6,654 nucleotides of DNA from a virus. Its lineage: Duplodnaviria > Heunggongvirae > Uroviricota > Caudoviricetes. The notes beneath the pieces were generated by a model that was given only the letters and a program-made list of their open reading frames with translations, made no database searches and had not been told where the DNA came from. Both the position numbers and the translations under genes were made by a program. The stretch is taken from IMG/VR virus record IMGVR_UViG_2713896788_000026; one strand, given 5' to 3'. The first letter of the stretch is position 1, and each line of letters starts with the position of its first letter. Positions 1 to 470 of the stretch are shown here, one piece after another.

Positions 1-470
1 CGCCTCCTTCACCATCTGTTCAAGCATCGGACGCACATCATCCGGGGTGAGACTTTTACCGTCTGCCGGCTGCGGAATATTTGCGACCGCATCATTCACC
101 GCCTTCTGCAGTACTTCCGGATCATAGTCACGACCGTCGCGCGGAACAGGGATATGGCTTACCGCCTCCTTCACCATCTGTTCAAGCATCGGACGCACAT
201 CATCCGGGGTGAGANNNNNNNNNNNNNNNNNNNNNNNNNNNNNNNNNNNNNNNNNNNNNNNNNNNNNNNNNNNNNNNNNNNNNNNCCGGGGTGAGACTTT
301 TACCGTCCGCCGGCTGCGGAATATTTGCGACCGCATCATTCACCGCCTGCTGCAGTACATCCGGATCATAATCACGACCATCACGCGGTACCGGAATGGC
401 CCCCACAGCGTCATCCACCATCGCCTGCAGAACCGGACGCACCTCATCCACCGTCACATGCTTCTGTAAT
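1..470. repeat. Tandem direct repeat, 162-bp unit (54 codons), at least 3 copies, in frame within the portal gene
   Basis: Positions 1-52 are identical to 163-214; unit length 162. After the N run, 286 to about 450 is a third copy with many substitutions, especially in its distal part. On the minus strand the units encode near-identical 54-aa modules. Confidence 0.85.

Follow-up and report, generated by a model that had tools for sequence, protein, structure and literature searches.

A 162-bp Coding Repeat Broken by an Assembly Gap in an Escherichia coli O157:H7 Prophage, and the Putative Fiber-Like Gene Joined to Its Portal Gene

The window (the whole stretch of 6,654 nucleotides analyzed here) is the head module of an Escherichia coli O157:H7 lambdoid prophage of the Sakai Sp9 or phage 2851 type (Pankowvirus), with all its sizeable genes on the minus strand, and its left end carries an in-frame tandem repeat with a 162-bp unit that is interrupted by an assembly gap. 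The best explanation overall, with a probability of about 0.7, is that the gap replaces nearly all of one repeat unit, that the array lies in a second gene fused to the portal gene, and that it would serve as the stalk of a fiber. The conclusions drawn at sequence level (the gap, the false stop, four units, and the fused second gene) are jointly very probable. As a sequence feature, the repeat is real but ordinary, being present in databases and resolved in closed genomes; more notable than the repeat itself is what appears to be a widespread, portal-linked, fiber-like protein, fused to the portal by one extra G. The observation made in the first-pass annotation of this DNA is confirmed, and its interpretation is partly supported.

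Repeat Array and Assembly Gap in the Window

Self-comparison of the window recovered both matches described in the first-pass annotation, namely an exact 52-nt repeat (1-52 = 163-214), expected by chance in 6.6 kb at about 1e-24 by our own estimate, and a diverged third copy, which aligns over 164 nt (42-205 against 286-449) with 84% identity. The minus-strand frame of positions 1-213 contains no stops and translates as LTPDDVRPMLEQMVKEAVSHIPVPRDGRDYDPEVLQKAVNDAVANIPQPADGKSLTPDDVRPMLEQMVKEA, and that of positions 287-1975 is likewise open, its translation terminating ...DVLQQAVNDAVANIPQPADGKSLTP; the same kind of module closes the portal frame on the right side of the gap as is found on the left. 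The array is a coding tandem repeat as had been proposed, its 162-bp unit being a multiple of three read in one open frame and comprising two alternating 27-aa helix-loop modules, one ...EAVSHIPVPRDGRDY and the other ...DAVANIPQPADGKSLTP. It occupies aa 510-725 of an 859-aa ORF and is acidic (41 D+E vs 22 K+R). The two sides of the gap are in different frames, out by one base, because the spacing over it is 244 nt (162+82); a length of 71 N breaks the reading frame, whereas 151 nt preserves it. The listed ORF 200..1975 ends on a TGA at 202-200 in a frame other than that of the repeat, a stop reached because the gap length in the record is wrong, as had been suspected from the first reading. 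TRF failed to detect the array in the window alone because of the gap, and on the closed-genome array it returned 4 copies with a score of 982 and 95% matches.

The portion of the window at 286-6654 shows 100% identity to many closed O157:H7 chromosomes, and the portal CDS measures 2580 nt (859 aa) in strain 3384, EDL933, and Sakai Sp9. Positions 1-214 have a unique placement in strain 3384, where 151 nt lie between their right end and the base that corresponds to position 286 (1-214 correspond to 2636-2849 and 286 to 3001 of locus L003, in a chromosome 100% identical elsewhere). The three contig edges, two at the gap and one at the window's left end, fall on k-mers that recur in the array (up to 61 nt), which, with the N length set against the finished sequence, is the pattern of a collapsed-repeat assembly gap. 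The repeated k-mers at the edges and the 151 nt in closed genomes identify the window as a short-read scaffold in which the gap stands for 151 nt, in line with the earlier suggestion that the N run inside the array was a repeat the assembler had failed to resolve. The contig broke three times on repeated k-mers within the array, and the scaffolder put a 71-N estimate in place of the 151 nt. An exact pattern running over the 71 N recovered the window itself and had no match in the viral contig collection. A reading of the 214-nt left piece as a clean de Bruijn ‘cycle’ contig (162 + k-1) was dropped on account of the 5 positions at which units 2 and 3 of the closed genome are not the same.

Two points of the first-pass annotation had to be revised in the light of these genomes. 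The array had been placed at the 3' end of the portal gene, but the real ORF, of 859 aa in identical closed genomes, extends 525 nt beyond position 1, taking in the remainder of unit 4 followed by a C-terminal beta domain of 137 aa. The true copy number had been left open, but the chromosomes that are 100% identical over 286-6654 carry four units, and judging from these the window's own strain would also have four. Very many E. coli entries in the protein database named ‘phage portal protein, partial’ stop in or near the array region; the array therefore routinely breaks draft assemblies. It represents a recurrent short-read breakpoint in the prophages of Shiga-toxin E. coli, giving rise to false stops, truncated genes, and ‘partial portal’ entries, and such breaks are to be expected in the typing and comparison of Stx prophages. 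The features of the window are collected in Table 1.

Table 1. Coordinates of the features located in the window and their main attributes.
Feature	Position	Strand	Remarks
Terminase small subunit	6409..5846	-	
Terminase large subunit	5849..4188	-	
Prohead-protease/major-capsid fusion	4124..2187	-	645-aa ORF; Peptidase_S78 aa 48-152, Phage_capsid aa 386-635
73-aa ORF (phrog_829, unknown function)	1921-2142	-	Overlaps portal start by ~55 nt
HK97-family portal	From 1975 toward left end	-	
HK97-family portal proper	614..1975	-	aa 1-454 of 859-aa ORF; portal ORF of split relatives ends at aa 454
Pfam Phage_portal domain	~830-1816	-	aa 54-382; PF04860, E 1.6e-79
Homopolymer C6 (+) / G6 (coding strand)	625..630	-	Sp9 vs Stx2_EH2246 alignment
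ATG starting standalone repeat protein (MTERELSIIRALGEEF...)	611..613	-	In split relatives; overlaps portal TGA as ATGA
N-terminal long helix (~50 aa)	449..613	-	Predicted, coiled-coil-type; AF2 helix 3-50, pLDDT ~86-94
Repeat unit 1, diverged copy	287..448	-	aa 510-563; 85% identical to unit 2
N run, assembly/scaffolding gap	215..285	.	71 N replacing 151 nt, nearly all of unit 2
Repeat unit 3	43..204	-	aa 618-671
False stop TGA	200..202	-	Outside repeat frame, reached via wrong gap length
Repeat unit 4, first 42 nt	1..42	-	ORF leaves window; real stop 525 nt beyond

Upstream of the portal gene lies the protease/capsid fusion, a layout shared with the distant relative L090, and the gene order of the window runs opposite to that usual in HK97 (portal, protease, capsid). 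Sakai, EDL933, and phi330 all conserve the 73-aa ORF, and L090 has a small ORF at the equivalent position. Within the terminase small-subunit gene, TRF located a 27-nt tandem duplication at 5913-5966 (2 copies, 77% match).

Portal Gene and the Gene Joined to It

The portal assignment is secure, with a score of 267 bits against a cut-off of 39.1 bits for the HK97 family (PF04860 / TIGR01537), and the array lies outside the domain. The PDB portal matches 9lbn and 8cez cover aa 41-420, and the solved HK97-type portals, of 393-431 aa, align only to that segment; the repeat and the C-terminal region were not found to be an integral part of HK97-family portals. The array had been taken as part of the portal in the first reading, a view that does not agree with the extent of the Pfam domain or with the separate state of the array's gene in most relatives. 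In Stx2_EH2246, a 454-aa portal ORF ends on a TGA that overlaps the ATG (as ATGA) of a separate repeat-bearing ORF of 353 aa, and the standalone 353-aa proteins P0024, P0120, and P0003 start at this same ATG. When Sp9 was compared with Stx2_EH2246, the junction differed solely by the G run, G6 giving an in-frame fusion with the predicted junction peptide …AMFRGDTEKMTER… and G5 giving two genes; G6 accompanied the fused form and G5 the split form in 32/32 matched loci. Relatives at ~68% portal identity are all split, and no locus, whether fused (812-1028 aa) or split, has a broken reading frame anywhere in the extension. The array belongs, on this comparison, to a downstream gene that is normally separate and is fused here by one extra G, and the fused state is derived, since distant relatives are split or standalone and fusion is rare in the family. 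In E. coli, the fused state is mostly that of one haplotype. The single exception, L049, has G5 within an otherwise identical G6 haplotype, representing either a second slip or a sequencing error. A distinct fusion to the portal occurs in an unrelated lineage (P0214, 1237 aa) and is present in independent JGI and ENA assemblies.

The same gene is already known as RefSeq WP_001304108.1, Sakai ECs_1795, and EP2851_54 of phage 2851, an 859-aa ‘phage portal protein’ (PHROG 2271). These are identical or nearly so to the window ORF wherever the window has sequence and include all four units of the array as well as the C-terminal domain, whereas the window version is broken by the gap and truncated at the contig end. 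In the database entries for the 859-aa protein, the whole is called ‘portal’, with mention of neither the repeat nor a fused second gene. Standalone members of the family, such as P0024, P0120, and P0164, are also named ‘portal protein’ in PHROGs and RefSeq yet have no portal domain, the label apparently having been transferred from the fused E. coli form. In the Stx phage records AP012530, AP012538, and AP012540, the split forms are labeled ‘portal protein (pseudogene)’. A comparison with NCBIfam gave no family for the repeat protein. PF28083.1 is assigned (precomputed) to the repeat and C-terminal region of many matches, and a literature search returned no paper on the repeat, the fusion, the family, or Pfam PF28083.

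Family, Copy Number, and Predicted Structure of the Repeat Protein

The repeat protein belongs to a family of 5577 related clusters, found by searching 1.84 billion representatives at 50% identity; across these clusters, both the C-terminal domain and the motif of the modules are conserved, with near-invariant residues. Standalone proteins of ~250-550 aa, bearing 0-18 motifs, account for 148 of the best 150 diverse representatives. In the three distant members whose contexts were examined, the standalone gene is found directly after the HK97 portal gene or overlapping its end. Members of PHROG 1289 and other standalone proteins (P0024, P0120, a ‘putative portal-like protein’, and P0164) share with the window protein the N-terminal helix, the PxPxDGxD modules, the CBM5/12-fold domain, and the position after the portal gene, differing in that they are unfused and carry 0 to ~25 modules.

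The earlier expectation that copy number might vary between related prophages was borne out when these were compared. The anchor-to-anchor distance in the 48 loci with both anchors corresponds to 2, 4, 6, 8, 10, or 14 modules of 27 aa, with no odd number among them, and the E. coli-type loci and complete phage records contain 1, 2, 3, 4, 5, or 7 units of 162 bp per locus. The same 1087-nt query spans 763, 925, 1087, or 1215 nt in complete phage records. The array is thus an intragenic VNTR, its copy number differing between homologous loci. Units 2 and 3 are 97% identical, with an exact run of 103 nt. The inner units are the most alike and the edge units are diverged, which, together with changes by whole units, is the usual signature of in-register unequal recombination or slippage; either unequal recombination or replication slippage between near-identical 162-bp units would lengthen or shorten the array. 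A simple prophage marker could be obtained from the number of 162-bp copies (1 to 7 units).

The part of the ORF downstream of the portal consists of a ~50-aa N-terminal helix, four 54-aa units (eight helix-loop modules), and the 137-aa beta domain. The 353-aa standalone form was modeled as a monomer by AlphaFold2 with an alignment of 84 sequences. The model contains a confident N-terminal helix of 48 residues and six short helices with PxPxDGxD loops between them (helices of 13-17 residues, loops of 10-12), the repeat modules having a pLDDT of 55-75, and ends in a beta-rich C-terminal domain with a pLDDT of 98. Moderate pLDDT is, in our interpretation, common for parts that may fold only as oligomers. 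The last ~50 residues of the beta domain have a CBM5/12 fold and match solved CBM5/12 domains, superposing at 1.1-2.2 Å on CBM5/12 structures of the kind found in the chitin-binding domains of Serratia ChiB and Streptomyces ChiC and in CBM-tipped phage fibers. The signature Y..GD.V.W.G..W....P....W is kept in the repeat protein, and its aromatic and Gly/Asp residues are nearly invariant over the family. The Pfam CBM_5_12 profile (PF02839) scores 24.8 bits, just under the gathering cut-off of 26.2 bits (E 2e-5), and a PF02839 match is also present in several diverse homologues. In ChiB and ChiC, the CBM5/12 domain is carried by an enzyme, whereas here the predicted module, with its Pfam score just below the cut-off, is carried by a portal-linked protein. 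A similar contrast applies to the CBM-tipped fibers of the Agrobacterium phages 7-7-1 and Milano, in which the tip is on a fiber and not, like the CBM5/12-fold module considered here, on a portal-linked protein. The same C-terminal fold occurs in phage tail fibers and in many phage proteins with collagen repeats, and some homologues run on into collagen-like G-X-Y tails (P0149). Weak Pfam matches to TetR_C_35, DUF4244, and Glycos_trans_3N, as well as PDB matches to designed helical-repeat proteins, fell below the cut-offs and were discarded; they probably reflect the helix-rich and repetitive composition of the protein.

Possible Placement and Role of the Repeat Protein

The predicted architecture suggests that the array would be a segmented and probably oligomeric helical stalk, the length of which would be set by copy number, holding the CBM5/12 tip as an accessory glycan-binding fiber at the portal vertex. 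The array would then be the stalk of a widespread and unstudied protein, one that invariably accompanies HK97-type portals and has a predicted sugar-binding fold at its end. The C-terminal fold common to phage tail fibers and collagen-repeat phage proteins, the collagen-like tails on some homologues, and the ORF kept intact in fused and split lineages argue for such a fiber, to which slightly less than an even chance is given. A similar design is found in the neck whiskers of phage T4, formed by fibritin (wac), which also combines an N-terminal attachment, a helical shaft broken by loops, and a small C-terminal domain for folding or binding, and which sits at the head-tail junction. Fibritin is neither fused nor adjacent to the portal gene; it carries a foldon at its C-terminus where the repeat protein has a CBM5/12-fold tip, and no sequence or fold match was found between the two. 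The main difficulty for a fiber is one of topology. Portal C-termini sit in the crown, inside the capsid, as solved portal structures show, and an external fiber fused to them C-terminally is therefore topologically awkward. The moderate pLDDT of the repeat modules in the monomer model (55-75) also counts against a fiber.

The orientation of portal C-termini toward the interior and the recurrent C-terminal fusions make an internal, portal-bound minor head protein the chief rival, an analogue of SPP1 gp7 or Mu gpF or a crown extension resembling the P22 barrel, in which the array would serve as a spacer within the head, and the C-terminal domain would be active there or after ejection, for instance by binding the glycan strands of peptidoglycan. 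At least two lineages acquired an in-frame fusion to the C-terminus of the portal and have kept it intact, and the fused 859-aa form is carried by phage 2851, which is inducible. The recurrence of fusion in the P0214 lineage suggests that the N-terminus of the repeat protein lies near the portal C-terminus, possibly inside the head. The gene is always immediately downstream of that of the portal, often overlapping its stop, and this is the position taken by the MuF/gp7 genes, a family with variable C-terminal parts whose member gp7 binds the portal (PMC5576092). Membership in the MuF / SPP1 gp7 family was considered for this reason and rejected, since a Pfam scan of the E. coli protein and six diverse homologues found no MuF domain (PF04233 / PF06152); the position after the portal gene and the link to the portal are alike, but fold and repeat architecture are entirely different. 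Further points speak against an internal location. The C-terminal fold is typical of extracellular enzymes and of the distal ends of phage fibers, some homologues bear collagen-like tails, an array so rich in acidic residues would be odd beside packed DNA, it is not obvious what a head would gain from a rapidly varying length, and the fused protein could not be ejected unless cleaved. An internal protein is accordingly regarded as unlikely, and the tip fold, the acidic stalk, and the collagen-like relatives would fit an external fiber better. The probability left by these two readings goes to an array with no length-dependent function or to something not considered.

A different role for the G run itself was also weighed, namely that of a programmed shift site at which ribosomal frameshifting or slippage would produce a short portal and a portal-fiber fusion in a set ratio, comparable to the extensions that frameshifting gives to certain tail and capsid proteins of phages. 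The G5/G6 homopolymer stands 20 nt before the ATGA stop-start overlap, a -1 slip on the G6 mRNA would, in our reading of the sequence, reach the TGA of the split form, and a G5 locus (L049) exists inside an otherwise identical G6 haplotype. However, in the zero frame the run does not form a canonical X XXY YYZ heptamer, its state follows mostly the haplotype, as would be expected from a single old insertion, distant relatives show just the split form, and L049 may represent a homopolymer sequencing error. Programmed shifting is considered very unlikely.

The fused ORF could also be a neutral or mildly harmful accident in largely defective prophages; the repeat would then have no length-dependent role, changes in copy number being drift within a low-complexity linker that tolerates them. 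O157 lambdoid prophages are for the most part considered defective, some of these genes are annotated as portal pseudogenes, and the record of the infectious phi330 contains frameshifts. Against this, the frame is intact in every fused (812-1028 aa) and every split locus, the motif and the C-terminal domain are conserved over the 5577 clusters, and copy number changes by whole 162-bp units with the frame kept. The gene is also present in Stx phage records, including that of phage 2851, which has been isolated, and an accident of this kind is rated as even less probable than a programmed shift. Finally, it is next to impossible that the N run represents 71 real bases and that the portal of the window's strain ends at the TGA at 200-202, a reading whose sole support is the listed ORF 200..1975, given that a spacing of 244 nt fits neither the 162/81-nt register nor the reading frame, that the repeat frame left of the gap is open up to the window edge, and that identical closed genomes have 151 nt at this position.

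With a rather low probability, the very large and uncharacterized family of 5577 clusters, currently mislabeled ‘portal protein’, may form variable-length fibers tipped with CBM5/12 and anchored at the crown side of HK97-type portals. If so, it would constitute either a new class of portal-vertex whisker threading out of the capsid or a new internal structure attached to the portal, the number of repeats would serve as a ruler for length, and a change of one base in the G run would switch between covalent (12 per portal) and non-covalent attachment. The location of the repeat protein in the virion would define an undescribed portal-vertex accessory in a group that includes Stx-converting phages.

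Virions of the isolated infectious relative phi330 have been analyzed by mass spectrometry in a study that gives no data on the repeat protein (PMC12502783). In the deposited genome of this siphovirus (vB_EcoS_phi330, PV189401.1; L005 1801-4543), the portal linker carries a 2-nt insertion and the last repeat and C-terminal domain a further frameshift, the region being divided into three ORFs. The genome was built from manually read Sanger subclones, a source in which sequencing error and real disruption are indistinguishable; if the frameshifted gene is real, the protein would be dispensable for plaque formation. Among distant relatives, genes with MptE-like, hexapeptide-transferase, and methyltransferase matches follow the repeat/CBM gene (L087 6588-7933, L088 5920-8186, and L095 4472-5110), which are sugar- or protein-modification types unexpected in a head-morphogenesis module.
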